Assembly: GCA_000165345.1 (NCBI GenBank)
Contig: CM000436.1
Coordinates: forward strand, 704,001-768,000
Direction: 5' to 3'
DNA: 64,000 nt
Shown here piece by piece: positions 2,080-46,332 of this stretch. Positions within the stretch are counted from its first letter, which is position 1. Each line of letters starts with the position of its first letter. Under the pieces are notes generated by a model. The model made no database searches. It saw only the letters and a program-made list of their open reading frames with translations, and was not told the origin of the DNA. A program made the position numbers and the translations under genes.

Positions 2080-2323
2080 AATATTTAAAAACTACCAAAA
2101 TACAATCTTAACACTTTTTTGTCAGTTATGTTTAACCAAAATTCCATCTTGATTACTTTAAACTGCATTGTCTTATTGCATGTATTATTAATTAATTTGA
2201 TGCCCCCCATTATGTAAATATTATAACTTATCTCGAACAAAAGTTCAAAGAAGTAGAAATAAATATAATAGATAAACATGATTAATTTACTAGTATTTTC
2301 AAGGTATCTTGTTAAATGTAAAA

Positions 2324-4420
2324 ATGGGTTTTAATATTTTTTTTCTTGGGATTTGTATCTCAATATTAATATTCTCCATAAGCGGCGTAAAATGTAGATT
2401 ATACTATGAAGATAATTTACTTGTTACTGATGAAGAATACGATGTAATTATTATTGGAGCAGGAGTTTCAGGCTGTTCAATGGCTAATGTTTATGCTAAT
2501 AATGGGAAAAAGGTTCTCCTTTTAGAAAGAGGTGGGCCAAGAGAGAAACATCCAAAAACCTTATTGACAAAGGGAGCTCCAGGAGTAATCACAGATGAAT
2601 CTATAAGTGAAGCTATTACGACATCAAACGGAACTCTGATGAATGTTGCAAACATTGTTGGAGGTGGGGCCAGTATTAATGGAGGATTTTATGTTGAACC
2701 ATCTACAGAATTTATGCGCAAAACTATTGAAAGCAGCGGTGCTACGTTTGATCAAGAGAAATACCTAAATGCAAAGGAAATTATTCGTAACTCAGGTATT
2801 TTAAACACCGACAACCGTCTCGAAGATAACACTTTTCCAAAAGCAATGTTTGAGGCTATGAAAAATATTAAAGAGTACTCTGGAAATGTTAGCGAAGTTC
2901 CTATTTATTATCCTGAAGGAAGTAATACATTTGTTACTGTTTCCCAGTTTAACGAAACAAATAGGTCATCAGCAGATATTCTTCTTTCTCATGAAAATAT
3001 AAAAATTTACCCCTATGCAGTTGTAGAATCCATACAGTTTAACACGACGGATGAAAACCGTGATCCGTATAGCTTAAAAAAGAAAGTAACTGCTCAATGC
3101 ATTTTGGGAAGAATGAGGTCCGAAAGTGATGGTTTTGTAAGTGTAAGTTCTGGAATGACACATAGAACTATTTATAACAATAATGGCCCTAAGTTCAAAA
3201 TTTGTCTCAATAAACCTGATTCATTTATCGTTCTTGCTTCAGGTGCTATTTACAGTCCTGCGATACTTATGAAAAGTGGTATTGGCCCAACTGAAGTTCT
3301 TAGAAAGCATGGCATTCCTCCAATTAAAATTCTAGAACAAGTTGGTAAAAATTATCATGATCATTTACAATTCGGTTTGTTTGGAATTTTGAAAGAAAAG
3401 CAGCCTATGTCTATTCAAAAAGTATATAGTTATAGCAATTGTTCAAAATATTATCCAGATCCTCCTAATATTTATGATGAACTCAGTCTATTCCACCATA
3501 AGGAGTCTGAACAAAAAAATGGTAGTTCAACTCTTTCTAAAAATTCGTTTGATTTACTACTAGAACCAATTTTAAGTAACCCCGAATCGCCATTGTTTGT
3601 TCCACCGGAACCAACTGGGCCACAATACGAAGATGGAAATTGCTACTCTACAATACTGAACGAAGTTTCTGGAGAATTGTGGATTCCTTTTGCAATATCT
3701 CAAATAATTTATAGAAAGTCTAAAGTTTTAATGAATCCTCTCTTGAATTATCTTTCTCTTTCACTTAGGACCAAAATTCTTAATGCTTTGGAAAGCAATA
3801 ATACAAGAATTTCTGATGATGGTTTTAATAAAATGTTACAGCCTATGAATGATTGTTTTGAAAATGGATCAGCCGCATTATCCTTCCTTACAATACCAAA
3901 GAGTAGAGGATCAATCACTCTAGACGAGATGGGACTCCCAGAAATTAATAGTTCAGACTTTTCAGATCCCATGGATGTTGAGGCAGCAATTGTTGGAATG
4001 AAACACTTAATTCAAGTAATGACTTCACAAAGTGTCTCCTCAATTCTTGAGAGTGAATTGAACTCATGTATCGCATCTATTAGAAATATTTGGGATTCTT
4101 TCCCATTGTTTGGAGGAATCAACGAGAATAATGTTATTGGATTTTCTTCAAGAGAACAAAATGTACCAGCTCTTATTCCCCCTCTACCGAAGATTATAAA
4201 TGATAAAACAGCATTTGATATGGTTAAGGAGTCTTACTCAACAATTTGGCACCCAACCGGTACCTGTTCATTAGGTTCTGTTGTTGATAGTGATTTTAAC
4301 GTGAGAGGGACTACAAATTTGAAAATAGGTGATGCATCTATTTTCCCCGAAGTTTCAGATGTAAGCCCACTTGGATCAGTATTTCTTTTGGCAACGTATA
4401 TTGCTTTAGTAACATCTTAA
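2324..4420 (+). CDS. secreted GMC (glucose-methanol-choline) family FAD oxidoreductase
   Basis: ORF 2309..4420 begins at TTG; ATG at 2324 gives a hydrophobic signal-peptide-like N-terminus MGFNIFFLGICISILIFSISGVKC. N-terminal FAD fold YDVIIIGAGVSGCSMA...LLLERGG. C-terminal GMC signature region WHPTGTCSLGSVVD...GDASIFP. Many NxS/T sequons. Confidence 0.85.
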   Translation: MGFNIFFLGICISILIFSISGVKCRLYYEDNLLVTDEEYDVIIIGAGVSGCSMANVYANNGKKVLLLERGGPREKHPKTLLTKGAPGVITDESISEAITTSNGTLMNVANIVGGGASINGGFYVEPSTEFMRKTIESSGATFDQEKYLNAKEIIRNSGILNTDNRLEDNTFPKAMFEAMKNIKEYSGNVSEVPIYYPEGSNTFVTVSQFNETNRSSADILLSHENIKIYPYAVVESIQFNTTDENRDPYSLKKKVTAQCILGRMRSESDGFVSVSSGMTHRTIYNNNGPKFKICLNKPDSFIVLASGAIYSPAILMKSGIGPTEVLRKHGIPPIKILEQVGKNYHDHLQFGLFGILKEKQPMSIQKVYSYSNCSKYYPDPPNIYDELSLFHHKESEQKNGSSTLSKNSFDLLLEPILSNPESPLFVPPEPTGPQYEDGNCYSTILNEVSGELWIPFAISQIIYRKSKVLMNPLLNYLSLSLRTKILNALESNNTRISDDGFNKMLQPMNDCFENGSAALSFLTIPKSRGSITLDEMGLPEINSSDFSDPMDVEAAIVGMKHLIQVMTSQSVSSILESELNSCIASIRNIWDSFPLFGGINENNVIGFSSREQNVPALIPPLPKIINDKTAFDMVKESYSTIWHPTGTCSLGSVVDSDFNVRGTTNLKIGDASIFPEVSDVSPLGSVFLLATYIALVTS

Positions 4421-4665
4421 CAAAAAGTTATTCTTGATATATTAGTTAATGCATTGTAATGAAACAAACATATCTTTTATTTAACAAAAATAATTATTGA
4501 TTTCTTCTTTAAGTTTAATTATTTGATTAATAATATTAGATATTTGCTGATGCAAAATTTTGATATTTTTTTGATATTTTAGATCCTTCCCTCGTGCATT
4601 ACTCGAAAAACGCAATTTCAATAACAAAAATATTCCAACAAAACAAAAATTTACTTATTAGAAAA

Positions 4666-5562
4666 ATGAAAAATTTGAAATATAAATTTCTTTTATTTAT
4701 TGCAATTAGTCTTTTGTTTATTTCTAAAGTTAAGAGCAGCCGTATAATCTATTTAGATGAAAATGCAACAAGACTAGAAAGTAATGCAACTGAACCTATA
4801 TCTAACAATAAATTTCCATATCTTCCTAATATTAGTAATGATACTTTTAATAATATGCAAGAGAATATTATTAAAGCAGTTGTCGGATTCGATAGCTTTA
4901 TCTTCGATATTGCTAAAAATATTACAAGCGGAATGAGAATAGCACAATTTTTCATTTTAAACAAGACGAAGACTTTTATTCTTCCATTTGTTATGTTTCC
5001 AGACGAAAAAAGTTTTGAAAATTTTAAAAATTCTACTTCGAATGAGACAGAAGTTGACAATCTCAAGTTAGAGAAACTTTTTCCAATAAATATTAATTTA
5101 CTAAGTCCTAACAAAAGTAATTTCACAAATTCCACTCTTGAAGAAACTTTAATTAAACCTGAAATGCTCATTCCATATCTGAGAGGTAGTCACAAAACGA
5201 TAAGATACAATGACACAACAAATGAAAATTTAAAGAATTTTACAACTGTAAATTCAACGGATGATTCAGAAAAAATAATCAATTCAACATTGATCCGGCT
5301 GAATAAGTACTTATTAACACCAAATAATGGTTCATTGAACATAAATAATCAAACAAGTAGACTTAGATTTCTTCAGTTTACTTCAGCTTATGGATTAGAA
5401 GATATTAGTGATCAGCAATTTGGACAAGATTTAAATTATTTAGATGGAATCCCAAATGTAGGAGGTATTTCTTCATTTGCTCAAGATTATGATCAGTGGA
5501 TACCTTCTAATAATTTCGATTTTTATAATGGTTACGGATTTGACTTTTTGTTCATGGAATGA
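4666..5562 (+). CDS. secreted, heavily N-glycosylation-sequon-rich protein (function unknown)
   Basis: ORF 4594..5562 (GTG start); ATG at 4666 gives signal-peptide-like MKNLKYKFLLFIAISLLFISKVKSS; more than 15 NxS/T sequons; no known domain. Confidence 0.6.
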   Translation: MKNLKYKFLLFIAISLLFISKVKSSRIIYLDENATRLESNATEPISNNKFPYLPNISNDTFNNMQENIIKAVVGFDSFIFDIAKNITSGMRIAQFFILNKTKTFILPFVMFPDEKSFENFKNSTSNETEVDNLKLEKLFPININLLSPNKSNFTNSTLEETLIKPEMLIPYLRGSHKTIRYNDTTNENLKNFTTVNSTDDSEKIINSTLIRLNKYLLTPNNGSLNINNQTSRLRFLQFTSAYGLEDISDQQFGQDLNYLDGIPNVGGISSFAQDYDQWIPSNNFDFYNGYGFDFLFME

Positions 5563-5570
5563 AAATAACG

Positions 5571-6107
5571 TCATCTTCTAAGTGAGATATCACTAACTAT
5601 AGAATCATAGGTGTTTTTATAAGTTTTGAATTCTTCTCCTAAGCTTTCAGCTACTAATTCTGTAAATTCGGCAAATAATTTATCTTTATCTTTGGAATCC
5701 TCATCCATAATAAGTGCCAAAGCTTCCGTTTTATTTTCAGAATGTTCAATAAACTTTATCATTTCCACTAATCTCGGGTTATTTCTTAAAAGAGATGAAA
5801 GTCTTTCGTTAGAATTCAATGCTTCTTTTTCCTTTTCAGTCAAATCGAATTGCTCTGTTTCCTCAATAGCGCTTTCTAATTTCATTTCATTGCATATTTC
5901 TTCAAAATTTTGATCTGATTGAAGTGAGTCACTTATTTGATTACTTTTAAGGCTACATTCTTCTCTTGAGTGAATCTGAAAACATTCCAACGAACAAAAT
6001 TTCCTTAAACAACACTTAAATTTATATTTTCCTATGTTAACTCCACAAATCACACAAATTTTATCATTGATAAGAGATCCTGTCTCAGATCCTTCCATTT
6101 TACTCAT
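5571..6107 (-). CDS. zinc-finger HIT-domain (ZNHIT-type) protein
   Basis: CVICGVNIGKYKFKCCLRKFCSLECFQIHS matches the zf-HIT Cys/His pattern near the N-terminus; acidic C-terminal half. Confidence 0.7.
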   Translation of the reverse strand: MSKMEGSETGSLINDKICVICGVNIGKYKFKCCLRKFCSLECFQIHSREECSLKSNQISDSLQSDQNFEEICNEMKLESAIEETEQFDLTEKEKEALNSNERLSSLLRNNPRLVEMIKFIEHSENKTEALALIMDEDSKDKDKLFAEFTELVAESLGEEFKTYKNTYDSIVSDISLRR

Positions 6108-6396
6108 TTTTATTGATGTTTATTACCATTTTTTTAATTATAACTAAAATGAAAAGTATCTTACCATCTTTATTACAAATTTTTAGTTCGGCGGTTTGGA
6201 AATCAAAATATAATTTTGATTTATTGATCCTAAATGTGTTTTATTCTTAACGAAAGATGTTAGTAATAAGGAATTATCCGAACCAAAAGGAAATAAATAT
6301 AAAAGCAGTGATTTACTATCTTATCAAAAATTAAAATAATAAAATATTACAAGCCTTTTTAATATTCAGGGTATTTTTACTTGATTAGCATGTAAT

Positions 6397-6407
6397 TTGC
6401 ATGCAAA
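6397..6407. promoter_or_regulatory. TGCATGCA-type (AP2-like) box upstream of the monooxygenase gene
   Basis: TTGCATGCAAA about 220 bp upstream of the ATG at 6625. Confidence 0.3.
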
Positions 6408-6624
6408 CTAATTAGATTTTAATGAAATTAAATTATGATTTTAGAAATAAAACAAGCAAAAAAATAAATTAAAACTTTAAGATTTTAACTTATTCGTATT
6501 TTATTTGAAAAATAAAAATGTTTTGAAGGCGCTGTAATATAATTCAGTTAAAATTAAAACTAAATGAATTTGTAAATAGGTTAATCAAAGAGATAAGATA
6601 TGATTTTGGAGATTGCTCATAAAT

Positions 6625-8046
6625 ATGGGTGTTATAAAAAGAACTCAGGTATTGATTGTTGGGATGGGCCCCGTAGGTATGACATTAAGCAATTTGCTTA
6701 ATTTATATAAAGTCGACAATATTATTGTTGACAAATTGACACAATTTTCGCCTATTCCAAAAGCCCACTACATTTCAAATCGCTCAATGGAGATATTTAG
6801 ATTCTGTAACAACTTAGATCAAGAAATATATAGGCTTCAACAACCTTTAGAATTTTGGAGAAGAATAACTTATCTAACTTATTTTAATAACTGCAAATTT
6901 GGTATTTTAGGAACTAAAGATGAATTCAGTAATTATAAGACAATTAATGGTTACTACTTAGATTTGGATAGCCAATCAGGAGTGGCAAATTATGATCAAA
7001 GCAAACTAAATAATTTATTGTACAAAAATTTGAAACAGTGTAAATATTCGCAGATAATGCTTGGAACATCTTGGAAAGGATATGAATTTGTTTCTAAAAG
7101 TGGAAAAGAAAAGGTAATTTCAAAGTTAGAGAAATCAAATTCAAATTTGGAATTTACTATAGAGAGCGATTTTTTAGTGGGAGCGGATGGAGCAAAGAGC
7201 CAGGTAAGGAAAGCTTTAAATAAAAATTTTAAAGGGCATGAATCTCTTCAAAAACTTCTAAATATTAATTTTATCTCAAAAGATTTGGCAAAAGTTTGTC
7301 TGGAACTCAAGCAAGAAATTATTGATGAGTGTAATAATATTAAATTAGTTCCCACCACAAGTATGTTATACTTTATTCTAAATCCAAGTTTAATAGGCGT
7401 AATGGTACTTCACGATATTAGTCAAGGCAACTTCGTGATCCATATTCCTTTAGTTGGTTCAAGCTCCGAGAAATTTGATTTAGATTTTTTTAAGCATATT
7501 TTCCCAAGTTTAATTAGCCAAGTATGCAAGAAAAACATTAATTTAGAGGTAAAATCTATTGAAACATGGAATATGTCAGCTCAAGTACTTGATTCGTTTG
7601 TTGATGAAAAAACAAATCGAATAGTTTTAATAGGAGATTCTGCTCATAGACTTCCCCCATCTGGAGGATTTGGGATGAATTTAGGAATTCAAGATTCCCT
7701 TAACTTAGCATGGAGATTAGCATTTGTATTAAAAAACAAATACGAAGAAGATATTAAAAAACAATTGAATGAGTTTAACATGGAGAGAATCCAACATGCG
7801 CAATATGCCTGTAATAACTCTATTCGGAATTTTTATAGGTCCCTATTTATTCCTAAAGCTATCGGATTGGACTGGAAAATAATATCTAGTATGCAGAAGT
7901 TAATATCTAATGCCGATAAATATATTCCTAATAAAATTTTAGAAGAGAAACCAGTCATGGATTACATTTATAAGTTAGGAATGTTTAGATTTTCAAAAAT
8001 ACTAAGGAATGAAAATAAAATGGAAAAGATAAAGATGCTTATTCAG
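6625..8046 (+). CDS. FAD-dependent aromatic-ring monooxygenase (PHBH/phenol-hydroxylase family), exon 1 of 3
   Basis: GxGxxG Rossmann VLIVGMGPVGMTLSNLL; VGADGAKSQVRKAL (DG motif); LIGDSAHRLPPSGGFGMNLGIQDSLNLAWRLA (GD motif). Reading frame ends at donor CAG|GTTAGT (8047) in phase 0. Confidence 0.8.
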
Positions 8047-8091
8047 GTTAGTTTAGTACTCCAGCTATATTAATATAAAACACTTTTTTAG

Positions 8092-8372
8092 GGATATATT
8101 AATTCAAGGGAAAATTCTTTATCTATCAACTTCAAAGGTCTTGATCTTGCATATGCATATAACTTTAATGCAGGAAATACAAAAGCATCTTTTGTGGCTC
8201 CAAAATCGCCGTTTAATTATTCCCCAAATACTTTACTAGGAATGAGAATCCCTCATGAATATGTTTATTTTCAAAGCCTAGATAAAATATTCAGAATCTC
8301 AACAGTAGACATTCCAATTGTATTTTCAGAAAGAGAGCCAAAGAATGTAATACTGATGTTTAGTGAAAAAAG
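8092..8372 (+). CDS. FAD monooxygenase exon 2 (after a 45-nt intron 8047..8091)
   Basis: Acceptor TTTTTTAG|GGA in phase 0. Exon encodes ...APKSPFNYSPNTLLGMRIPHEYVYF... (GxRxPH motif typical of this family) and merges with track ORF 8194..8376. Ends at donor AG|GTAAGC. Confidence 0.55.
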
Positions 8373-8420
8373 GTAAGCAAAAAAAAGTATTACACAAAAA
8401 TTATTTGACTAAAAAATTAG

Positions 8421-8712
8421 TCTCGATAAAGTTAGAAAAACTTTTCCGAATCACGTTGTTGTATTTTGGACGTTAAAAAATGAAATCAATCAAAGTCAAT
8501 CAAAAATTTACACAAATCTAGAAATTTTGCCAACTGGAAAAATTAATAAAATTTGGACCTCAAAGCAGGTTAGAGAAAAATATTTGGAGAAATTGAATAA
8601 TATAAACAAAAATTCTATAATAAAAAATTATCGAGAACTAAATTTAAAAGATTTAGATAATTTATTTTTTGAAATTAGACCAGATGGTCATATAAAAAAT
8701 ATAGGATGCTAA
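8421..8712 (+). CDS. FAD monooxygenase exon 3 (after a 48-nt intron 8373..8420)
   Basis: Acceptor AAAAAATTAG|T completes codon AG+T in phase. Frame merges with track ORF 8527..8712 and ends ...FFEIRPDGHIKNIGC*, restoring the family-typical C-terminal RPDG motif. Confidence 0.55.
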
Positions 8713-10316
8713 GCTTCAACATTCTTAGGAGGCATTTTTTTTAGCAAACTTAATATTTCATTACCAAGTGTGAGTGATTTTTGAAGCGCAATATTAAGAT
8801 CTCCTTTACTATTAGTTTCCATCCAACCAGTTTTAAAAATAGGACAGGGAAAACAATTATTTTCAAATGAATAATCTTTATTTCCATTAAAAATATAATC
8901 ATATTTTGGTTTGAATCCCAATGATGTGATCAATAATTGGCAAGGTAAATAATATTTCTCCTTCTCATTTAACTTTGTTTTATCAGTAATTGGTTTAGAA
9001 TCACGAATATTTCTCGCTAATTCTATTCCTTTGATAAACGGGATTGATTTTTTTTTCACATTATTCTCTGGAATATTGACTTCTTCAGTTTTAATATTTA
9101 CAGTAGAGAAGAGGTTTTTAAAATGTATGTTTATTGTTTTATCATTATGGAATATGTTATCATTATTGGCTATGTATTCTTGGTGATTATTAACCATTTC
9201 CTGAAATATAGACTTCATTTTCAAAAATCTTCTTTTTATTTCTGGTCCGCTTCTTTCTAATTCGAATAAGCTAGTTCGGTCCTGTGAAAGCTCAAAATCT
9301 TCTTGAGACATCATTACTCTGATATTCATTCCATTAGTAGAATTGTATTTTGATTTCCTAGACTTATCAATAAATTCCTTTAATAATGGATATTTAAAGG
9401 AATTTTGAATCCAACCTCTCCGTCCAATAATAAATATGTTTTTGAACAAAGGTCGATAGATATCGGAGTTTGAATATTTAGATGATGTGTCAATTAAATT
9501 TAAATAATCAGGATTCAAATATTTGTTTTTTGAAAGTTGTTCATGGGTATAGAAAGATAAAAGTCTAGTAATATCCAATGAAACATTGCCATTTCCAATG
9601 ATAACCGCATTCCTCTCACTGGAGTTTAATATATAATTTCTAAGTATATCAGAACCATATCCATATTTAAAGTCTTCATTTTCGTTTTTAAATGGGACGC
9701 TAATTTCAGTAGAAGATAAAGGACTCTTATATTCAAAAAATTGATTGTTTTTTTTTTTAAGGTAATTCAACTCTATATCCATATCAATTCTCTCATTATC
9801 AATAAGTTTATTATTGATCGAATTAGAGTGTTCATTTTTTGTTGGATATAGCATTTTTTTAAACATTGGGTGGCTATTATAATAAAACACCCAATCTCTA
9901 GAAGAAAATACTCCTCCTATAATTTTATTCTGTAATTCATTATTCATATATTTCACTGGAAGAGTATGGAAACTTTGTAATCCACCAACTGCTAAAACCA
10001 CTACATCGTATTTCCTCTTTAATTCTTCTAATTTAACATCATATCCCAAAGTCACATTTCCATAGAATTTAATATCATCAGAATATTTTTTAAAAAGAGA
10101 GTTATCAATACTAGAAATCGATTTTTTTAGATCATGTCTATCTGGTGCAATTCCATATCTGAGTAGCCCAAATGGTTTATCTAAGGAATCTAATAAATCT
10201 ATTTTGATTGCAATGTTTTCCTTTTTTGATCTTGCCAGCAAATATTTGGCCAAGTAACAACCTGATGGGCCTGCACCAACAATACATAACTTATATATTG
10301 GCTTGTAAGGTCTCAT
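8709..10316 (-). CDS. adrenodoxin reductase-like ferredoxin-NADP(+) reductase (Arh1/FDXR family)
   Basis: ORF 8709..10406 (TTG); ATG at 10316 gives MRPYKPIYKLCIVGAGPSGCYLAKYLL then GLLRYGIAPDRHDLK, matching FDXR N-terminal signatures. Second NAD(P) fold AVIIGNGNVSLD. 3' end overlaps the monooxygenase stop by 4 nt. Confidence 0.75.
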   Translation of the reverse strand: MRPYKPIYKLCIVGAGPSGCYLAKYLLARSKKENIAIKIDLLDSLDKPFGLLRYGIAPDRHDLKKSISSIDNSLFKKYSDDIKFYGNVTLGYDVKLEELKRKYDVVVLAVGGLQSFHTLPVKYMNNELQNKIIGGVFSSRDWVFYYNSHPMFKKMLYPTKNEHSNSINNKLIDNERIDMDIELNYLKKKNNQFFEYKSPLSSTEISVPFKNENEDFKYGYGSDILRNYILNSSERNAVIIGNGNVSLDITRLLSFYTHEQLSKNKYLNPDYLNLIDTSSKYSNSDIYRPLFKNIFIIGRRGWIQNSFKYPLLKEFIDKSRKSKYNSTNGMNIRVMMSQEDFELSQDRTSLFELERSGPEIKRRFLKMKSIFQEMVNNHQEYIANNDNIFHNDKTINIHFKNLFSTVNIKTEEVNIPENNVKKKSIPFIKGIELARNIRDSKPITDKTKLNEKEKYYLPCQLLITSLGFKPKYDYIFNGNKDYSFENNCFPCPIFKTGWMETNSKGDLNIALQKSLTLGNEILSLLKKMPPKNVEA

Positions 10317-10534
10317 TTTTATAAATGATCCAAAAACAAATTCAAATTCATTTCCTAGATTTAATATAATTATTACAACTACTTCACTAATCAAATCAAA
10401 AAGCAAACATATATTTCTGAAAGATTAACAAAATTAATTAGTGATGAAGTTGTCGATATATTTTGAATTTTTATGTTTAGAATGAAGTTAGAAAATTTGT
10501 TAGATTGGAAAACTGCATATTCCCCACATACCGC

Positions 10535-31901: not shown

Positions 31902-34900
31902 ATGAGCGACAATTTACAATCAGAAAAAATTAATCAAGACTCCAGCCCGAGAGAGTCTAAATTTACCGAAATAAAAATCAATTCTGGTGAAAACCCAGTA
32001 CAAATTAAAAAGGACTGGCTCCTTGAATACAGAAATGGGTTGAGCTCCGAAGAAATGCAGCAGAGACAGATTGAAGGTAAATCATATACTATGCCATTAC
32101 TTAAGGCAATGCTCTTGAGTCACTACAACCGCACAGCATGGAATAATGCCGAAAGCCAGGTTAAGTATTCAAATATTAAAAATGGCCAAACTACTGATGA
32201 ACTCAGAGAAATTTCTCAAAGATTAATGGTAGATGAAGATAACAGTGCGAGAGTTCTTTTAGAGAGGAAGTACTGTATGAAGAAGGTTGGACTGTTAGGA
32301 AAATTTTCACCGCGCTGGTTCATTTTCAAGGGTACGAATTTGGCTGTTTTCCATTCAGCTCATGAGGAAACCCAACCAAAATTCTACAGCTTAGTTGGTG
32401 CAGCATATGAAGTTGAAGATAGAGATTCTTCTCCAAACAAAACATTATGGGCAACCCCAATAGAAATTATTTCTGAAGATGGAAATATTGTGCATAGTGA
32501 TGCAAAGTACAGGCTCTCTGTAGTTACAAAAGAGCCAAAAGTAAGACACTTTTGCTTGTACAGTAATAAGAAAGAGGAAATTGCAGATTGGGTAAAAGTT
32601 TTCCATGTTGCCAATTTAAATTTGGATCCAAGCCAAGCAGCATTGATTTCTAATGTAATTACTAGAATTGCTCAGAGAGATGTCCCTTCGGCATGGGAAG
32701 CATTAGTTTATGAGGCAGAGAACAGGGCGCATAGAGAAACAATGTTAAGGTGTTTTGTTAATAGACTTAGATACCTCAAGGCCACAAGAGTCCTCAATAA
32801 GTGGCAAACTATCTATAAGGTACAAAACAAAGATTCCAATGAGGGGTTAAAGTTGTTAGGTAGGGAGGTTATGCTAGGTAGACTTTATCGCCGCGACAAA
32901 TTGTTAGTTAGAACTAGCCAACAAAGAGAAGCAATTATTGAGCTTATCCAAGAAGGATATAGAAGAGAAAAGAGCAAAAGCCAGGCTCAAATGAAAGCTT
33001 CTACTGAGAGCATTGAAACTACTGATAGCGACGCAGCTGCCATTGCTGCTACTTCTGAAGGAGCACAAATTAAGCAGGGTCAACAAGGGCGTGATTTTCC
33101 AACTGTTTTTTACGTCAACCCATCAATAGAGAAGTACCATTCCAAAATTTTGGATAGTAAGGAACAATCAATTAAATCAAAATACTCTAAGCATACAATT
33201 ATTCCTACATACCAGGAGGATGCAAATGTTAGGATTTCGAGTGATTTAAGCAGGGTTATTTGGGCCCCAAAAAAGTGGGAATCTGTTGGAAATAAGAATA
33301 TGTTTATCGATGTAGATTCAATATCATCGATTATTGTTAATGCATCAAAGCCCTCATATGCATCAAAGGGACTATACTCTGCTCCTAGTATAGTTAGCGA
33401 ATATGATATCGCTGAATGCGTTGATGAGTATGTATACAGTATGACTGATTCTTGCTTCTCTCATATTGCAGATAAGGAGAAAAGAGAGAGAGACCCACAA
33501 AATAGAATCACTACTGGTAACTGGTTGGCTATTTGCGGTCCAAGATTAGGATTTAAACCAGCATATTCACCAGATTTCCTGATCCGTGATACGCCTGTAG
33601 TTGTTATGAAAGTTAATATCAACATTAAATCTATCAGTTTAAATGAGAGGTTCTCTCGTCTTTATACAGAATATTATCAATATTATGCTGATGAATTGCA
33701 AGAAATGACTCCTTATGAGAAGACAACCACAATGGCAGCCTTAACTTATGGTGATAACTCTCAAACCACCAAATTGAACACCATCAAATCTTTGGTTTCA
33801 AACGTCCAAACAAATGAAGAAATAGTACGTGATTACGGCACAATGACAAGTAGCATCTCTAGCATTAGGAGACTATTTACAGCAGCATCAAACATTGATA
33901 ACGAAACAATTGAAAATAATCTTAAGGAATCAGGATCTTCAAACTTTGAAAATCAAATTAAACCATCAAACTCTACAGTTGCATCGATAAGAAACCTTTT
34001 CACAAAAAATATTTCAAATGTCAAAGATTTTAATTCTCCAAGATCATCACCAGTAAGATCTCAGACGAAATCTGCAACTGTTACAGGCACAAAACCCGCA
34101 AGGCAAATTGATGGATTAGTGCTCCCTCCAGAACTAAGTGTTATTGATCCATTTAAAACAGTCCAGGTTGAAAGAAACCTAGAGATAAGGGATAGCACAG
34201 TTCAAACATATCTAAGAATTACAGCCTTTCATCAATCTTATACATCTGCTCATGCTGTAGGCGTTAATCCAACATATGACTTGAATTTTTGCGTTGATGT
34301 CCCATTGATGACATCAAATGCTTCAAAAGAGATGATTAATGAGGCAAGAATCAAAGCTATGGAAGATGCTATTTGTACAGTCGACCTTTGGGTTAAGTCG
34401 CCAATTGATTGTGTTCCGGATGAACTTATTGCATCTATTGATATTCCTCTAAAGGAATTGAGCAACAGTGATAGACTTTCCAGACAAAGATCTCAGTTTA
34501 TTGCTGCTGATTCATTCATTCTTAAGCAACCAGTTCCTGATTTAAAATCTAGTGTTAGTGGCAATTCAAGAGCAATTCAAATACTTAAATATTTGGGTCT
34601 TCTAGATCCAAGTAGCGAAAATTTGGAAGATTTACCACTTGGTCAATTGGATATTTCTGCTGATTCAGTCATTGAGACATCAATTATGGGAGAAAACCCT
34701 ATTTCACCTGAAACTATTTGTTTAGGTGGTCTTCAGGGTCTTTCTTCTTATTCAATTGATCAGTCTACAAATCAAAATATCAGACAAAAGAATGGAGATT
34801 GTGTTGAATTATATATTGGGCAAGTAAAACTTGATCCAAATTGGACTCCAGGTCTGTACTTTGTTGAAGTTATTATGGGAGATGTTAGTTGTATGACTCA

Positions 34901-37900
34901 CTTAGTTCAAACAAGATACGATTCAATTTCTGCTGATTTCCGTTCTCATCTGTATATTCCAAGATATGATAATCAACTTGGAGTTGATCCAAAGTGCTTA
35001 CAAATATTGATAAGACGTGCATTGGGAACTGAAGATAGATGTTCCTCATTGGCTAGGTTACTCCAAGATTCTGTTATAATGGGTGAGTTAATTGTAGACG
35101 TCACAAAGTTAACGATGAATGAACCACACAGTAGCAATGGACTTTATGCTGTCTTCAAACCAACTACATCTGCACTCTATGGAAGTAGAGGTTTGGATTA
35201 TGCTTTAGAAATAGCCCAGTTGGGGCCAAAATCTGATGAGTTGCAAGAAGCAAAACAACACATCATGTTAGATGTTCAAATTAGAATGATGATCACATTG
35301 AGAAGAAAAACAGACGTAACATTAAAAAAAGTAATTGATCAATCAGATGACTTTAAATTAGTGGGTGATACTGCGCTACTAGTTGTAGAAGAAGAGCTGA
35401 AATATCCAATTTCGCAAAAAGAATTCCATGTAAAATGCTGCCCTGGTAATTTTGATACATTAAAAGCTGGAACTCTTGGATTGCCATTAAGATCAGTTGG
35501 AAACTATATAGAATACGAAATTGGAGGGTTCCAAGAAAATTCAGATCAACAAATCAACGATTTGAATACTCTAAACAAATTCGAGAACGATAGCATTTTA
35601 AACGAAGAATTAGAAGCTATTGATGCTCAGCCAGTTCCGTTATATGCGAGCGATCCAGTACCTGCTCAATTCTATCTCCCGGAAGATCCACGCACATTTA
35701 GAAGCCGTAAGTTACCAGGTATTTGGCATCGAATATTGGCTGATGGATTTAGACCAGGGGAACGCGTAACGAGACTTACACATCGTGTTAGATATGTTCC
35801 AGTTACTATTATTGCAATATATAAAAACAGGACTGCTTTGTGCAGATGGGCAGAAAATGTTTCTATAAATCCAACAGAATTTCCTGAAGGCTGTGTATTC
35901 ATCCCAGAACAAAGATTAGTCATGGGCGTTCCGCTTTCATTTCTTTCAACCCCACATAAAGCTGGTATTCATGTATATGATTCGACTATCACTAGACTAC
36001 CGGATAACAGTATAACATTGTTAAGTGATATAACGAACTATGGTGGATACATGCCATTGAGCGTTAACCCAATATTCTGTGAATATGAATGGGTACTCTG
36101 GATTAAGGCAGAGACCCCTCAACAAATGACTTTATGGGCAACAATTATTAGGAATACTGTAAGAGAAAGAGCATTTAGACGTGTTAGGGCATATGAAAGA
36201 ACCAGAGATATAATGAATAATGAAGAAGAGGTTGAAAATAATGATTGTAAAGCTTCTACTTCCATGATCTCAAGAAATTCGAATGGTCAATCATACTTAG
36301 AAAAACGATATGACAGTGGAGAATTAGAAGTTGTAGTACATAGCTCAAAGATTTTGTGTAAAAGTAATCAATCATTAAACTTTTATTCAGTTTTCCAATG
36401 GGCAAGAATACCAAAACAATTATACGAAATGATTGAAAATGAAGGAAATTATGATGTTAAGAGTAGTATTCGCCAAGCAATAAAAAGAATTATTGAGGAA
36501 AGTATTCTTGGATTTAATATGAAAAATAGAAGTTCAGTTACCGACCAATTGACTCCTCAAGAATTGAGGCCTGCACCAATAGATATGAGTACTGCAAAAC
36601 TGCATGCAAGCTATATTCCATTTAGTCTTTCAACTCAAATAAAAGAGAATAATTTGTACTCTGTTGATAGGATAAAAGATGAATTCTTAATTTTGGTTAC
36701 AAAAATAACATTCAGTTCTTATTACCTTTCAAATCTATGCAAAAATGTTTTACCAGATGAAACTTCTCCATATGTAAAGAATTCGAAGGAAGCCAAATTA
36801 TTGGATAAGATTAGCGGCGAATTGGTTGGCGTAGTTCCTGACAAACTAGACAAAAATAAGTTGACAAATGAAGTTTATAATACATATAGATGTAGGTTTT
36901 ATAATAACAAAGATACGTGCGAACAGGGAGGAAGTGTATTCAGTACAACTCATATTGATACAAGTGATGAAGTTCCACTTTTAATTATTAAACTATTCCA
37001 AGAGTCAAATGATGGTTTGGATACATTTATTGGCCATGTAATATTGAATACTGTTGATTACCTGACTCCAGAAAATCCATTCCAAATTAAATACAAAAAA
37101 ATCAATCCAAGATATACTTATATTGTTTCTGCTTCAGGTACCGGTGGTAAGATGTATAGTTTTGATACAGTTCCTGATGCATTAAACTTTGTAATGTCCC
37201 AAAATAAAGAAATAACTGTTGAAGAATTTTATAGGGCATTATATGGAGAAACAAATCAAGCAAGAAGAATTCATGGTCCATGGAGAGTCAGAGTGCAAGA
37301 AAATATTGAATACCATGGTGACGTTTGTTTAATGGTTAGATATGGCCCCACTGATATTCGGCTATTGACAGAATTCCAACCCACTGCTAATGATTATAAG
37401 GAACATATCTTAGATTATCATAGAAAGCAATTTGATGACAGTGGTATTCCATATATTCATACAGTTTATGATCCCAATACACCATTTGCAGTTAAGATAG
37501 CAAGAATATTCGGGAACAAGTTTGGTCAATTGAATGGAAATGTTTTTGATTTGTTAAAGAAATATTCAGATGACACGAAAATGCTTAAATTGATACAAAT
37601 GTATTTATTAAGACCAGCTGAACAATGGGTTTACGAGAGAAGTCTTTATGAACAAATGTTATTCTTAGAACCATTGACAGATTTAATCGAAAAGCAGAAT
37701 ATGACAAGATGGAAATATTTATTAGCAGATTCTAATAATAGAGGTTTACAACAATGGGAACAACTATACCGTCAAGGTTTATTATTGCATAAAGTTGATG
37801 AATTATCATATGATAGTTGGTCTATATTAGTAAATGCTAATGTTCGTGACCGTTTGCCATCGATTTTACTTGAATTATGGAATGGAGAAGAATATTTAGG

Positions 37901-40900
37901 TGAATATTTATTGCCTTCGTTGTCATCCTTACTATTAAGTAAGATTAACACTACAGTTAGGCTACATACATCTGCTTTGGCTAGAGAAAATGATAAGAAA
38001 ACACGTTATGACATCCGAAAGGAAAATTTAACAAGTTCAAAATTGTCTACATTTATAAATATGGAAATTAGTTGGAGAATCAAAAGCACGACTGAAGGTA
38101 TATTTGGATTGATAGTAAAAGATGTCAGAAATGTTGTTTCTGAATTAACAGATGACTTAAATGAAATTAAACCTCAAATACATGTTTATCAGTACTTTTC
38201 AGATAACGATCAATGGAGAATAATGGAAATAACTAAGCCTAGTATTGCTACAAGAACAATTTTGGGCATCGAAACTCCAGAAAAATTAAAAAAACAAAAT
38301 ATTGAATGGAATAATGTTTTTGTTTATAGCCGAGACAGAATTGTCGATCTTCAGTTCCCAATATCAATTCCTGCTATGGTTGAATCAGTCCCAATTGTAT
38401 TTAACTTTAATGAATTGTTGCTCTCAGATAATAATAGTATCAAATTAGACAAAGATGAAAATAATGAGGTTGTTGAAAAAATATGGTCATTATTGAAATC
38501 AGGAGTTCCAAACTATTATCGTCCGTATATTTGGATGCAGCTAAGCGGCGCAAATGACTTAAAGAACTCAATCCAGAAAAAATGGCAATCGTTGAATGAT
38601 TCAAATAAATGTGGTCATGACACGTTATTCTCATATTTAATTGAGTATGCAGATACATGTAATTCTTGCGTATTGAGGCAGTTAGATGAAGATATTGAAT
38701 CAGCGAAAATACGTTATCACATGTGCGAATCAATATTGGGCATTGATCAAGTTCATACTTTCTGGGAAAATGTCCGTTATATTATGAGAGCATTAATTGT
38801 TTTCTCATTAAGAAAGAAGTATAATATTTATAACTGCGAAAAATTCCATGTTGGATTGCCATTACAATATGCATTTGGCCTATTATCCTTAACTATCGAA
38901 TTATTAATGAATTTTGGTGGTGTCTGTTTAACTCCAGAAGATGTTTTCTATCTAGTTTATTCTGTGTGTGGTTCTAGGCATAATATTTATTTAAAATCTA
39001 ATAATGAAGAAGATAAAAAAGATGAAAATAGATCTTTGAAGAATAAGAAATTGATAAAAGGTGCTCTATTGCCTTATTATACAACAGAAGAACAAGAAGA
39101 TGATTTAAACAATGATATGCCTGCGCAGATTAATGATATCATTTTCTTAAAGAGTGCTTTAGAATTACTACATCCATTTGAATACGATAATATGTTAGCA
39201 TCCGGGTTTCAGCTTGAAGAAATATTTTATGGATGTCTAACATCAATATTTGCAGGCTCATTACCATCTTCAACAATTACACAATTGTATGATTTATTGT
39301 TCAATGTATACTTCCAACCAAAAGATATTTTCATGAAAAGAGGAGAGCACCATCATAAACATGATCATAAAAATGATATTGATTATAATGATAATAAAAT
39401 AAATATTTCACTTAGTAGGCGTATTTTAATATGCTTATCTTACTTTATCATAACAGAATCATATCGTGAAATTAATATCAACCCATTGATTTCTTCTAAG
39501 TGTATTCGTGAAACTATTAAATCTACTATGGCTACTATGAGAGATCCATTAGAAATGGTACACGGTATTGAAAGAGCTGATTTTATCATTTTTGGAAACA
39601 AGAAAATTTATGAAACTATATTAAAATTATATGAGACATATATTATTTCATATCAAGAATCTTTATGGTTTTCGAAAAAGCAAAATTCGGTGTTAGAAAA
39701 AATGATCAATATGACCCCATTACAAAATCAACATGGTAGTGATGCACCTTCACATTTAGGAATGAGATTCATTGGAGGAAGATATGTACCCAAGACTGTT
39801 GCTTCTCCTGGATTATCACTAAAAGATTTAACAGAGTCATTATATCCATTAATTAAATTCCAAGCACTCTATGCGGGGAGAAATCTGCATCAATTACCAC
39901 CTGGAATTGCTGGTTATGTAATAATAAAAATAGATGAAGTACGTGAATTTGCCAAATATAATGAACCCATATCTCCGGTAGTTTGTGTGAGAATGGACCA
40001 ATATAAAGTTGCAACAGACCCTGCAACTGAAAGATGTTCTAGATCATTTATATGGAAATCAAATAACGTATTTATGTTCCCAATACCGATTTGGAAATCT
40101 CCTACACAAAAGAAAAATTTAAATGGACGCAACAGCTATCATTTACATAAAGAGTCATCTGAGTCTGAAATGCCGTTGACCGTTGAAATTTTTATCGAAG
40201 TTTTGGATTCCGAAGCGCTTGATGATGAAAATAAATTATTGTGTTCAGCACAATTAAGTTTAGACAGGTGGTCAACTGACGGTGGTAGCTTATCATTAAA
40301 TGGTGATGATGGAACATTAGCAATATATAATGATTGTAATAAAATGAGCTTACTATTTTCATGGTATACATATGTACCAAATAGTGAGTTGGACACAAGC
40401 GCTTTATTACCATTTTCATTTGGAAAACAACAATGGGGTGATTATGGTGGCTACCACTGTATCTATGCACCAGTTAATGTAGAGTCATATAGGAATGAAT
40501 TGCATTCCGAATTAAAAGAGGAAAAATTGAAAGAATGGGAATCAGAGCCAAGACAAAGCGTATTAGATATTATTCGTGGTCATAGAAAAATGGATGAGAG
40601 TGGTGGAAATTTAGATGCTTTACCAACAATGAGATCCATGTATCCCGGTAAATTGGAAATCAGCACTGGAAAGTACGGCCCAACTAGATCGCAATTGCAA
40701 CAATTGTTTTTCTTCTCAGCTCCTTCTCTTTTACCATACGTTGACGAGATTGTCGAGAGTTTTGCAAAAATATCTATGAACTCATCAGAGGAGAAGGTTA
40801 CATTAACCCCAGTACCTTTAAGAGAACTCATTGCATCCATTATTTTATGTTCCCGTGGTACATTAAGCGAAAAAGCCAATTTATTATTTGATTTATTTGG

Positions 40901-43900
40901 CTATGATGATGCAAATCGATTGTCTGTAGCATTCCATTCAATGTATTATTCTCATACTCCTCAGTATCCAGCGGCTATTCAAATTGGTTCCCAATTAAAT
41001 ACTCATTTACCAGTTGAGGTATCTGATAAACTAGGTGTTGCTCCTTCAAATGTAATTTCACTAGCAGGCGTGGCAGCAATAGTACAAACTGCATGCATAC
41101 GTTCAAATATACCATTAGATAATGTTGGAATTTACCAAATTACAGCTTCAGTATTTGACCATTATTTCGATGTACCTAGTGTTGTAAAAGCATTGATTAT
41201 ACCTCCTAAGGGATATGATGGGCGTGTATCTAAGGAATATATTACACATAATTATCGCAATTTGAAGTATGATACGAGCTCAATATCAAATACTGAAGAT
41301 ATTACAATAGATAATATGAATATTTTTAGTGATTGCAAAGGAAGTAAGGGTATCTTTAACTCAATTAATTGTATGAATGGTAAAAGTGTTAAAGAAAATG
41401 CATACTGGTATAACATCGATCATATGATTGACAGTAAATTTATTTTGGATGTATCGAGATCCATAACACACCATATTAGAAAAAATGCATCTTTGGAAGG
41501 GTTATTTGGAATTGATTTCTCTGTTCATACTTGCCTAAGGCATTTTGATATTAATGATCCTTTCCCAGGTTTAATTAAAACATTAAGAATAATTATTAGT
41601 GGGAAGAGAAGTAAACATGAAATTAGAATAATTGATCTAACAATTGATGAGAAAGGCCACTTTATTGATTCAAGAGTACAATATGGTACAGAAACTAGTG
41701 ATGATTTGCACACGACAGATGTTAGAGGAGCAAATCAATTCAGACAAGCATTTGAATCAGGTTTAGCAACTGTCGATTTCCCAAGACTGTTGTTTAGTGA
41801 CGGAGCTGCAAATGGTAAAGAAAGAGTGCCTACTGCTAGTTTTGTCTTCAATCTACACAATATCTTAATTGATAAATATAGTTTTGTTACAAAATTCTGT
41901 GATTTCACATTAGTAACAGAAGCAATAAGGAGAATAACTGCTAATGATCGTACATGCGAGCCTAATCGATATCTTAAATTAAATGTAGAAGTTAATTTAA
42001 CCCTCGAAGAAAACAGATCTTATCCTCACTACAGCGTTGATGAAATCCTAGGCGTTCCATTAAAAATAATGAATAATAATGACGAGCTAGCAAATCAATT
42101 AAGCCAATCTCTAGTAATCTCTGGCTCAAATAATAATATTGGTAATCAAAGTCAGAGAAGTGTTATTTCAATGAATGCCTCAACATTAATGAATGAAGAT
42201 GGATACATGACTCAAAGATCAATGATTTCAACTAATTCAAAACAAGTATTCGAGCCGTCTTTATCGGTGCATTCTTCAATGCCTTTATTAACAGAGGGTG
42301 AAGACACAAATGAAGATGTTGGTTGTCAAAGTATAGAAGCAGAGAAGTTGAAATCAGGTATTTCATTAACGAGCAGCAATAGCATTGCTAAAGGTGAGAT
42401 TGAAAAGATGTTATCAAAGAAATCTACTTTAGTTGGAGATGAAGAATTGGAAAAAATGGTTTCAAACAATTCATATCAAGACAATAACGTTAATAATGCC
42501 GAAAAGTTGCCGACAAGAACGGAGAGTAACTCAGGGGCTGTATTAAAGCAAGCTTCTACTGCAACTTCTAGGATTGCTGCTTTGTTTATGACTAGGCAAT
42601 CTTCATTGTTTAATTCTCTATCATTCAATAATGATGGCGAAAATAATAAAGAAGCCGACGGTACTTTAGATTCTAAATTGAATTCTATTGCTAAATCATC
42701 TTCAAAAATTTCTGATGAAGAGATAAATAAAATAGAATCAACTTCTATTCCAAGAAATAAATCTTACAATATTGATGAAGATGAGGAAGAGCTTAAAGTG
42801 GATGAAGAAGAGGAAATGTTATTGCAACAACAACAATTATCTTCAGCAATTAATTCATTTAACTCTAAAAGAATAAATTCTCAAACAAGTCTACTTAGCG
42901 CAGTAAGTCGCGGCGCATCAACTGTAAATCTATGCCGTACATTCACTAGAGGAAATTTTGGCTCATATTATGAGGCTGAAGGCAAGACAGAGTATCAGGT
43001 TGATATTCCTTTTAGACCACCAGGCCAGGTAGAAGAGAGGCATAATATTAGAGTTTATTTGGCTGACAGCATCCGTGTTTTAAAGAATAAGGTAATGGAA
43101 GCTTGCAAATCAATTGCTCAAAGGTTACAAGAAAGTGGAATTGATAATGGATTGTATAAAGAGATTGTATTAGGGCCACATCATGTAGTTGAGCTAGTTG
43201 TTACTGACTTTGATGGCCATATTCGTTATTTGCCTTTATTAAATGAAACAAACTCTATTGAAGACTATATTCTTTCAAATGAAGATTTACTGCAAGAATT
43301 TATAACTTCGAATATGAATAGCATTCTTAACATCAGAATCATTCCACCAAAGAATTTACAAACAGAGAAATCAACTAGAATCGTTAATGAGATGCAACAC
43401 GAAAGTGGTGGAGCTTGTATTACAAGTATGTATTTGGCAAATGAGCTTGCAAACCACGAAATATTGGAAGATGGATTATTAGTTAGGAACCCATTAGGGT
43501 TTAGAACATATTTCCATAAGGCTCATTATGAAATAAGAAACAAGATGATTGAAATTGAACCGGGAAAAGTGGTATCTTTGGATAATTTATGTTTTGTAAG
43601 AAAAAGTAATACAGTACTAAATAACCTAGCAGCATGCATAAATTTAGATTGGAATGTTGATGAATGGGTTCCAGCAGTTGCAATTAGAGGAATTAATACA
43701 TTCTTGGATGAACTTGAAGGCATTCATTCTGAGTCGGTGCGTGGCCGCACATCTAGAATTCCGCAAGCAGTATTAAGTGCATCGTCAACGATCGGAGGGT
43801 TTATGCCAGTAACATTAGGAGCATATAACCCAATTTCTGCTGCGTTTGACTATGGTTATGGAGCAAGAAATGGAAGCATATCTGTTTCAAATAATCATAG

Positions 43901-44601: not shown

Positions 44602-46332
<1,731 letters not shown>

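Follow-up and report, generated by a model that had tools for sequence, protein, structure and literature searches.

Plants, green algae and the SAR group have a flavin-dependent demethoxyubiquinone hydroxylase, CoqF (PMC8654299; PMC8559556), and hydroxylation of the ubiquinone ring by the Arabidopsis enzyme has been established experimentally (PMC8654299, PMC8559556). The bacterial and fungal hydroxylases of the TfdB/HbpA group form its sister, 'cluster II'; cluster II enzymes do not complement ubiF, and CoqF is inactive on cluster II phenolic substrates (PMC8654299). In Toxoplasma, TgCoqFMO, described in 2026, is mitochondrial, belongs to the ubiquinone (CoQ) synthesis complex and is needed for both the C5 and C6 hydroxylations (PMC13369981). 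Cryptosporidium parvum is itself listed with CoqF in place of Coq7 (PMC8654299). Here we analyse a stretch of 64,000 nucleotides (the window), which exact-sequence look-ups place on chromosome 8 of C. parvum, and within it a run of five genes, three of which encode flavoenzymes: a glucose-methanol-choline (GMC) oxidoreductase, a flavin monooxygenase and an adrenodoxin reductase-like NADPH:ferredoxin reductase (FDXR). The CoqF identity of the middle one of the three, the monooxygenase, is thus already listed for C. parvum in the literature.

We read the locus as a genus-wide syntenic block holding three flavoenzyme genes that function separately and were inherited vertically, and among which the monooxygenase would be the CoqF/TgCoqFMO orthologue, its neighbour an Arh1-type reductase, and the GMC oxidoreductase unrelated to ubiquinone; we put the probability of this reading at roughly 0.7. 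The initial annotation of the window had flagged the region 2309-10406 for three flavoenzymes with intact cofactor motifs among five genes, and Pfam matches, motifs and look-ups all bear this out: the genes are intact and functional-looking. The region limits fared less well, as 2309 and 10406 are the limits of open reading frames at upstream TTG codons, and not the starts of the coding sequences. All five genes of the region have already been deposited in GenBank/UniProt.

The monooxygenase and the CoqF family

The three flavoenzyme genes are laid out as follows (positions are those of the window).

2324-4420, plus strand: GMC oxidoreductase, predicted secreted, 698 amino acids, HOTHEAD/hydroxynitrile-lyase-like subfamily (identical to EAK89454/QOY40024; Pfam GMC_oxred_N and GMC_oxred_C above cut-offs)
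6625-8046, plus strand: monooxygenase exon 1, FAD-binding and substrate domains of a putative CoqF-type class A flavin monooxygenase (FAD_binding_3 at 4e-56, residues 6-396)
8047-8091, plus strand: monooxygenase intron 1, 45 nucleotides, GT..AG (from the sequence; the spliced product equals WRK34025.1)
8092-8372, plus strand: monooxygenase exon 2, carrying the GMRIPH motif (spliced model)
8373-8420, plus strand: monooxygenase intron 2, 48 nucleotides, GT..AG (from the sequence; the spliced product equals WRK34025.1)
8421-8712, plus strand: monooxygenase exon 3, last part of the thioredoxin-like C-terminal domain, including RPDGH (spliced model; structure-model alignment to PieE and HbpA)
8709-8712, both strands: tail-to-tail overlap of the monooxygenase and FDXR stop codons, 4 nucleotides (direct sequence reading)
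8709-10316, minus strand: NADPH:ferredoxin (adrenodoxin) reductase, Arh1/FDXR orthologue, 535 amino acids (identical to Q8IS94/QOY40028; best solved relatives 1cjc and 1lqt)

The three-exon product of the monooxygenase gene, 664 amino acids long, is identical to GenBank WRK34025.1, and the motifs GxGxxG, DG, GDSAHRLPPSGGFGMN, GMRIPH and RPDGH are all found in it. A word-indexed search with this protein returned other Cryptosporidium species, then Vitrella, one ciliate and stramenopiles; a protein search also found it in C. hominis, C. tyzzeri and chipmunk genotype I. We built a profile from the orthologues of the word-indexed search and scored it against 1.8 billion representatives. The named full-length matches at E <= 1e-110 came from a Desulfobacterales metagenome-assembled genome (MAG), Marchantia, Sesamum, Chlamydomonas, Pleodorina, Laminaria, Chromera, Besnoitia, Cystoisospora and Plasmodium ovale. 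These taxa are the set described for CoqF/TgCoqFMO, the Desulfobacteria affinity reported in the Toxoplasma paper included (PMC13369981).

A neighbour-joining tree (487 columns, with bootstrap) split CoqF cluster I from phenol-hydroxylase cluster II at 100%, and placed the Cryptosporidium monooxygenases in a myzozoan clade together with Plasmodium, coccidia and chromerids at 81%. Because of the taxon set, the tree and the listing of C. parvum in PMC8654299, we filed the monooxygenase, on sequence grounds, as the putative Cryptosporidium CoqF/CoqFMO orthologue, vertically inherited within Myzozoa. It shares a clade with Arabidopsis CoqF (At1g24340), TgCoqFMO (TGGT1_232540) and Plasmodium PF3D7_0815300, and has in common with the CoqF/TgCoqFMO family the three-domain architecture of class A flavin monooxygenases, the long C-terminal extension and the catalytic His. 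The extension (~226 amino acids in CoqF) corresponds to residues ~400 to 664 and holds both GMRIPH and RPDGH. The catalytic His is kept as His48 of the PKAHY motif, equivalent to His88 of AtCoqF and His48 of HbpA, and is invariant in all cluster I sequences. The proteins differ in length: the coccidian and Plasmodium CoqF orthologues have 1,015-1,453 amino acids, versus 664 in C. parvum.

Two other families were considered and rejected. The monooxygenase scored 51 bits against the COQ6 model TIGR01989, which has a cut-off of 489, and the tree also speaks against a Coq6 identity; membership of the UbiH/UbiF family fails in the same way (TIGR01988, Ubi-OHases, 68 bits with a cut-off of 224.65). 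The initial annotation had set the enzyme closer to phenol/aryl hydroxylases than to Coq6, which agrees with these scores and with its best solved relatives, the TfdB-like PieE and HbpA. It had also raised a link to hydroxylation of the ubiquinone ring by a Coq6-type route; the link appears to exist, but through the CoqF/TgCoqFMO family instead. The comparison with yeast Coq6 and its partners Arh1/Yah1 therefore goes only part of the way: on sequence, both systems would have a ring-hydroxylating flavin monooxygenase and an Arh1-type reductase, encoded side by side in Cryptosporidium, but the Cryptosporidium monooxygenase lies outside the Coq6/UbiH family.

PieE (deposited as 2,4-dichlorophenol 6-monooxygenase) and HbpA are the best solved relatives by both sequence and fold, with near end-to-end alignments. 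The predicted structure of the monooxygenase superimposes on them over ~680 columns with target-normalised TM scores of 0.75-0.79. Piericidin resembles ubiquinone and carries a long lipid tail. The PDB titles of PieE, the top structural match (6u0p/6u0s), refer to piericidin ring hydroxylation and, given the resemblance of piericidin to lipid-tailed ubiquinone, the match would fit a lipid-tailed quinol as the substrate of the monooxygenase. TfdB, HbpA and PieE, bacterial group A hydroxylases, thus provide the closest solved sequences and structures and have the DG, GD, GxRxPH and RPDGH motifs in common with the Cryptosporidium enzyme, but belong to a separate clade (the 100% split above).

Public models of the monooxygenase are often shorter than 664 amino acids: 482-568 in C. 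parvum Iowa II, C. hominis and C. tyzzeri, 574 in C. canis and 547 in chipmunk genotype I. The short models lack part or all of the C-terminal domain (the region corresponding to window positions 8047-8712). The exon absent from the C. canis model was recovered by tblastn, in the region L006:11775-12083.

Decay of the monooxygenase gene within the genus

We compared the syntenic locus in seven other species, C. canis, C. andersoni, C. serpentis, C. ubiquitum, C. felis, C. ryanae and C. xiaoi, by tblastn of the C. parvum proteins. Two further genes of the region, located between the GMC oxidoreductase and the monooxygenase, enter this comparison.

4666-5562, plus strand: hypothetical signal-peptide protein, 298 amino acids, N-x-S/T-rich, not a flavoenzyme (identical to EAK89456; no Pfam family)
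5571-6107, minus strand: zf-HIT domain protein, 178 amino acids, divergently oriented relative to the monooxygenase (identical to EAK89455; zf-HIT match weak)

The same order, namely a gene for a protein of ~400 amino acids, GMC, hypothetical, zf-HIT, monooxygenase, FDXR, M16 peptidase and a SET/bromodomain gene, is found in the gastric species (C. andersoni, C. serpentis) and in the intestinal ones alike, so that the arrangement is kept genus-wide apart from losses of the monooxygenase and zf-HIT genes. GMC and FDXR are intact in all seven species, at 58-91% identity for GMC (76-91% in the intestinal species) and 51-76% for FDXR.

The monooxygenase gene is intact in C. parvum, C. canis, C. 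andersoni and C. serpentis, and shows successive degrees of decay elsewhere. In C. ubiquitum it is a pseudogene, located in a 2.6-kb gap without called genes between zf-HIT and FDXR, with at least four frameshifts, fragments in all three frames and many in-frame stops; identity has fallen to 36-60%, versus 69-91% for the neighbouring genes, and the motifs are destroyed (PKAH to VIGN, GDSAHRLPPSGGFG to NDSTYYIPSSGKFG, RPDGH to GSEGN). In C. felis there remains a relic of 56 codons of the last exon (L002:5819-5986; 48% identity, one in-frame stop), which abuts the FDXR stop codon and may have been kept since it doubles as the 3' untranslated or termination region of FDXR. No trace of the monooxygenase was seen at the locus in C. 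ryanae and C. xiaoi, which have an AT-rich spacer of ~450 bp there; in the lineage of these two the gene has been deleted.

Loss of alternative oxidase (AOX) and of ubiquinone synthesis has been reported for C. ubiquitum, C. felis, C. bovis and C. ryanae, and retention of both for C. parvum, C. hominis, C. meleagridis, chipmunk genotype I and the gastric species (PMC5146892, PMC8767354). The reported pathway loss thus covers three of the four species without an intact monooxygenase (C. ubiquitum, C. felis and C. ryanae), and the presence of the gene co-varies with the ubiquinone pathway, as in the CoqF/TgCoqFMO family. The contrast between C. parvum and C. ubiquitum has been used as a filter by the Toxoplasma authors (PMC13369981). 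By sequence identity, C. canis, which keeps the gene, branches between C. ubiquitum and C. felis, from which we infer at least three independent losses. The loss profile is strong circumstantial evidence that the monooxygenase works in ubiquinone synthesis. It also argues that the three flavoenzyme genes are not one module, because GMC and FDXR are intact in all seven species and the monooxygenase has been lost in four.

The two intervening genes behave differently. Orthologues of the hypothetical protein are fast-evolving; they were detected in six of the seven related loci, with no match in C. ryanae. The zf-HIT gene was not detected in the loci of C. felis, C. ryanae and C. xiaoi (between the hypothetical gene and FDXR), where it has gone together with the monooxygenase, and is kept in C. 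ubiquitum although the monooxygenase there is a pseudogene.

Several points weigh against the assignment of the monooxygenase to CoqF, or against its independence from FDXR. No N-terminal targeting extension is visible on it in the Cryptosporidium or chromerid models, and its mitosomal location is for this reason an assumption. The Rossmann strand begins at about residue 8 in the Cryptosporidium models and the upstream extension of the open reading frame opens with TTG only; plant and coccidian orthologues bear N-terminal extensions of 40-200 residues. The Cryptosporidium model thus differs from CoqF/TgCoqFMO in having no presequence, although a 5' exon may have escaped annotation. Furthermore, of two Phe residues called CoqF-specific, one is replaced and the other probably so. 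The equivalent of AtCoqF Phe121 (W-R-x-F-x-Y) is Ile81 in C. parvum, C. canis and C. andersoni, with Phe in all other cluster I members sampled. The probable equivalent of Phe283, mapped approximately via Sesamum (offset +1), is Leu252 of the MLYFILN motif; this second position is Met in the coccidia, the experimentally validated branch, and Tyr in stramenopiles and the ciliate, and hence is not universal. We found in the literature neither enzymatic, localisation or knockout results for the C. parvum monooxygenase nor a statement on the ubiquinone status of C. canis; C. canis, C. serpentis and C. xiaoi lie outside the literature-backed profile. Finally, a hydroxylase adjoining its proposed reductase is improbable a priori, at ~2 in 3,900 for one named partner, which leaves room for an electron coupling between the two (see below).

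The replaced Phe121 equivalent, the probable replacement at Phe283 and the lack of a visible presequence, together with an existing annotation as 'phenol 2-monooxygenase like' and with solved relatives that act on phenolics or polyketides, could instead indicate a phenol/aryl hydroxylase that acts on a host-derived, dietary or microbial aromatic, in detoxification or salvage, and has nothing to do with ubiquinone. We consider this very improbable. The enzyme falls inside the CoqF clade, away from the phenol-hydroxylase cluster with full bootstrap support, and its companions there are the Plasmodium and coccidian orthologues of a hydroxylase whose action on ubiquinone has been proven by experiment; in addition, three cases of its repeated loss are found in species reported to be without AOX and ubiquinone synthesis.

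As a CoqF orthologue, the monooxygenase would be a class A (PHBH-fold) FAD enzyme with a thioredoxin-like C-terminal domain, which would form a flavin C4a-hydroperoxide and hydroxylate the head group of a prenylated benzoquinol. The plant enzyme acts at C6, and the Toxoplasma enzyme at C5 as well as C6; for Cryptosporidium we infer the positions.

Ferredoxin reductase and the supply of electrons

The gene converging on the monooxygenase encodes a protein that, among solved structures, comes closest to bovine adrenodoxin reductase (1cjc) and M. tuberculosis FprA (1lqt), with E values of 2e-22 to 5e-22. Its nearest matches outside the genus are those of Toxoplasma/Hammondia and yeast ARH1, and its Pfam matches are below cut-off. 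The FAD motif (IVGAGPSG), the NADP motif (IIGNGNVSLD) and the GRRG motif (IIGRRGW) are present. FDXR thus resembles adrenodoxin reductase, FprA and Arh1 in its FAD and NADP(H) motifs and solved relatives, and has orthologues throughout apicomplexans and fungi; it differs in being ~75 residues longer, with insertions, and in the N-terminal presequence, which is reduced to 8-14 residues in the intestinal Cryptosporidium species. In the gastric C. andersoni and C. serpentis, FDXR bears an Arg/Leu/Ser-rich, presequence-like N-terminal extension of ~30 residues (MIRFPLGYARQLHSRR...). In the intestinal species only 8-18 residues precede the Rossmann strand (window positions 10292-10316 in C. parvum). 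The short intestinal N-termini are consistent with a shortening of the presequence during mitosome reduction.

Arh1 and Yah1 serve iron–sulphur (Fe–S) cluster assembly. Since FDXR is intact in the four species that have lost the hydroxylase, its indispensable role must lie outside hydroxylation. By analogy with the Arh1/Yah1 family, and from its retention, this role is probably the reduction of a [2Fe-2S] ferredoxin for Fe–S cluster assembly, and FDXR would then be a mitosomal Arh1-type NADPH:ferredoxin reductase. Fe–S cluster assembly is the sole pathway kept by all Cryptosporidium mitosomes (PMC5146892).

FDXR may also supply the hydroxylase with electrons via ferredoxin, a route proposed for Toxoplasma, although this is not required by our reading. 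The initial annotation had taken the adjacency of the two genes as a hint of such coupling and had noted a 4-nucleotide overlap of their 3' ends. The overlap is real, as read directly from the stop codons, which share 8709-8712 (the monooxygenase TAA occupies 8710-8712, and the FDXR stop 8709-8711, CTA on the plus strand, that is, TAG). In its full form, the coupling idea holds that the CoqF-type hydroxylase of Cryptosporidium, and of other apicomplexans, is reduced via FDXR and mitosomal ferredoxin, as yeast Coq6 is via Arh1/Yah1, and not directly by NAD(P)H; the gene pair would then be a trace of, or an aid to, this partnership, for instance by way of a common chromatin environment or joint regulation of the 3' ends.

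Wherever a Cryptosporidium species keeps the hydroxylase, its gene and that of FDXR directly adjoin and converge; in C. parvum they also overlap. Data from Toxoplasma point the same way: an Arh1-like protein is among the proteins most enriched in TgCoq5 proximity labelling, along with TgCoqFMO; homologues of Arh1/Yah1 are drawn as the proposed electron donors to TgCoqFMO; and Toxoplasma is without Coq6, yet retains Arh1/Yah1 (PMC13369981). However, FDXR survives intact in the four species that lost the hydroxylase, and so has another, sufficient function. Adjacency is absent around the hydroxylase genes of Vitrella, Besnoitia and a TARA stramenopile, and around the reductase gene of Toxoplasma. 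Several eukaryotic CoqFs restore CoQ8 in E. coli ubiF mutants, where mitochondrial partners are missing (PMC8654299), and the nearest characterised relatives, HbpA and TfdB, are known among group A flavoprotein monooxygenases as single-component, NAD(P)H-dependent enzymes. Moreover, gene order in Cryptosporidium is highly conserved in general, and conservation of this particular pair therefore carries little weight. The overlap itself is limited to the C. parvum group, with spacers of 72-75 nucleotides in the gastric species.

The proposal of the initial annotation thus keeps its factual basis, the adjacency, but as this is limited to Cryptosporidium and FDXR outlives the monooxygenase, its support is weak. 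We regard a coupled module of hydroxylase and reductase at this locus as unlikely, though well short of negligible. The idea is not new, being the same as the model drawn for Toxoplasma (PMC13369981). The broader claim, that apicomplexan CoqF-type hydroxylases have been rewired to accept electrons from ferredoxin and its reductase instead of directly from NAD(P)H, with the overlapping Cryptosporidium pair as the genomic footprint, is in our opinion doubtful. On the reading we prefer, of separately functioning genes, adjacency and overlap would reflect the compactness of the genome and not an obligate module.

The GMC oxidoreductase, the origin of the block and its meaning

The GMC oxidoreductase matches both Pfam domains of its family, GMC_oxred_C at 2e-22 (80.5 bits, cut-off 24.6) and GMC_oxred_N at 1e-11 (45.4 bits, cut-off 23), and has the N-terminal FAD-binding GxGxxG as DVIIIGAGVSGC. 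A signal-peptide-like N-terminus and many glycosylation sequons had been noted for it at the outset; we find indeed a hydrophobic N-terminus (MGFNIFFLGICISILIFSISGVKC), conserved in the genus, and 10 N-x-S/T sequons. The best solved relatives are 8s2y and the almond hydroxynitrile lyases, and the nearest proteins outside Cryptosporidium are plant HOTHEAD-like proteins and an Eimeria oxidoreductase, at ~25% identity. The likeness to the plant enzymes and to EnOXIO1 of Eimeria lies in the two GMC domains, in the FAD motif, in the first catalytic His, which is kept (WHPTGTC), and in the signal peptide and secretory character. Apart from the low identity, the difference lies in the second catalytic position, which is Asn in plant HOTHEAD and His in glucose oxidase, but a Ser inside the invariant stretch 'SDVSPLGSV' in each of the 7 Cryptosporidium species compared (residues ~678-690, window positions 4360-4400). 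This Ser suggests altered chemistry under purifying selection.

The GMC oxidoreductase persists in all species, at 58-91% identity, whatever their ubiquinone status, and we therefore place it outside the ubiquinone pathway. It would be a secreted, glycosylated, HOTHEAD-like oxidoreductase. The protein has been detected in a proteome study of C. parvum sporozoites, and the Eimeria enzyme localises to the wall-forming bodies of gametocytes. A role in oocyst or wall chemistry is, by analogy, a reasonable guess, made with low confidence.

In Vitrella brassicaformis (CDMY01000286.1, 1-13285), a GMC gene is found two genes (8 kb) upstream of the CoqF-type monooxygenase gene, and the order and strands, GMC(+), gene(+), gene(-), monooxygenase(+), match those of GMC, hypothetical, zf-HIT and monooxygenase in Cryptosporidium. 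The two middle Vitrella genes have no detectable similarity to the Cryptosporidium hypothetical and zf-HIT genes, and the Vitrella GMC, of which only the 3' end is available, matches the C. parvum protein no better than plant HOTHEAD does. The common order could be ancient microsynteny with a functional meaning, or chance.

The initial annotation had regarded such enzymes as candidates for lineage-specific acquisition. In its strongest form this would mean that the three genes are horizontal acquisitions that arrived together as a cluster. The best matches of GMC and the monooxygenase are plant-like, an old annotation reads 'of plant origin', the monooxygenase counts a Desulfobacterales MAG protein among its closest relatives, and the Vitrella arrangement could be added to these. 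Nevertheless, we consider joint acquisition extremely improbable. The block is present from gastric to intestinal species, and each gene has apicomplexan or chromerid relatives: the monooxygenase, whose tree follows organismal groups, goes with Plasmodium, coccidia and chromerids; FDXR is nearest to Toxoplasma/Hammondia and yeast ARH1; and GMC has relatives in Eimeria besides the plant HOTHEAD-like proteins. The plant affinity of CoqF has been put down to an early origin in Diaphoretickes or to an ancient transfer (PMC8654299, PMC8559556), not to an event in Cryptosporidium. Horizontal transfer into Cryptosporidium was rejected for the individual genes as well, since the list of C. parvum transfer candidates in the literature (PMC545779) includes none of them and the taxon distribution favours inheritance.

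Elsewhere in the window, a uridine kinase/uracil phosphoribosyltransferase fusion (Pfam PRK and UPRTase; 46587-47960, minus strand) appears to be the chromosome VIII gene of algal/plant origin in the list of Huang et al. 2004. A 576-amino-acid protein with Notch/LNR domains (Pfam PF00066, 1e-36) is encoded at 44602-46332 on the minus strand, and an open reading frame of 4,180 amino acids (31902-44444) adjoins its gene. A tRNA scan of the window gave no hits.

The presence of three flavoenzymes within five consecutive genes is unlikely by chance, at about a few per cent genome-wide in a rough estimate that assumes ~30 such genes among ~3,900. The biology of the locus is nonetheless largely known: its genes are ancestral, already annotated and non-randomly close, but without a shared evolutionary fate. 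What the genus adds is a series of intact gene, pseudogene, relic and deletion that tracks the reported loss of the pathway. The series separates two possible jobs of FDXR, which is kept where the hydroxylase is gone, so that Fe–S cluster assembly, and not ubiquinone synthesis, would be the indispensable one.

Animals have no CoqF/TgCoqFMO, and the enzyme has been proposed as a target for drugs against apicomplexans, including in cryptosporidiosis (PMC8654299, PMC13369981). For Cryptosporidium this idea is tempered by the finding that the putative CoqF gene was discarded at least three times in the genus; AOX has been found to be dispensable in C. parvum (PMC12691609). The neighbourhood of hydroxylase and reductase, for its part, offers a testable hint as to what reduces the flavin of apicomplexan CoqF enzymes.

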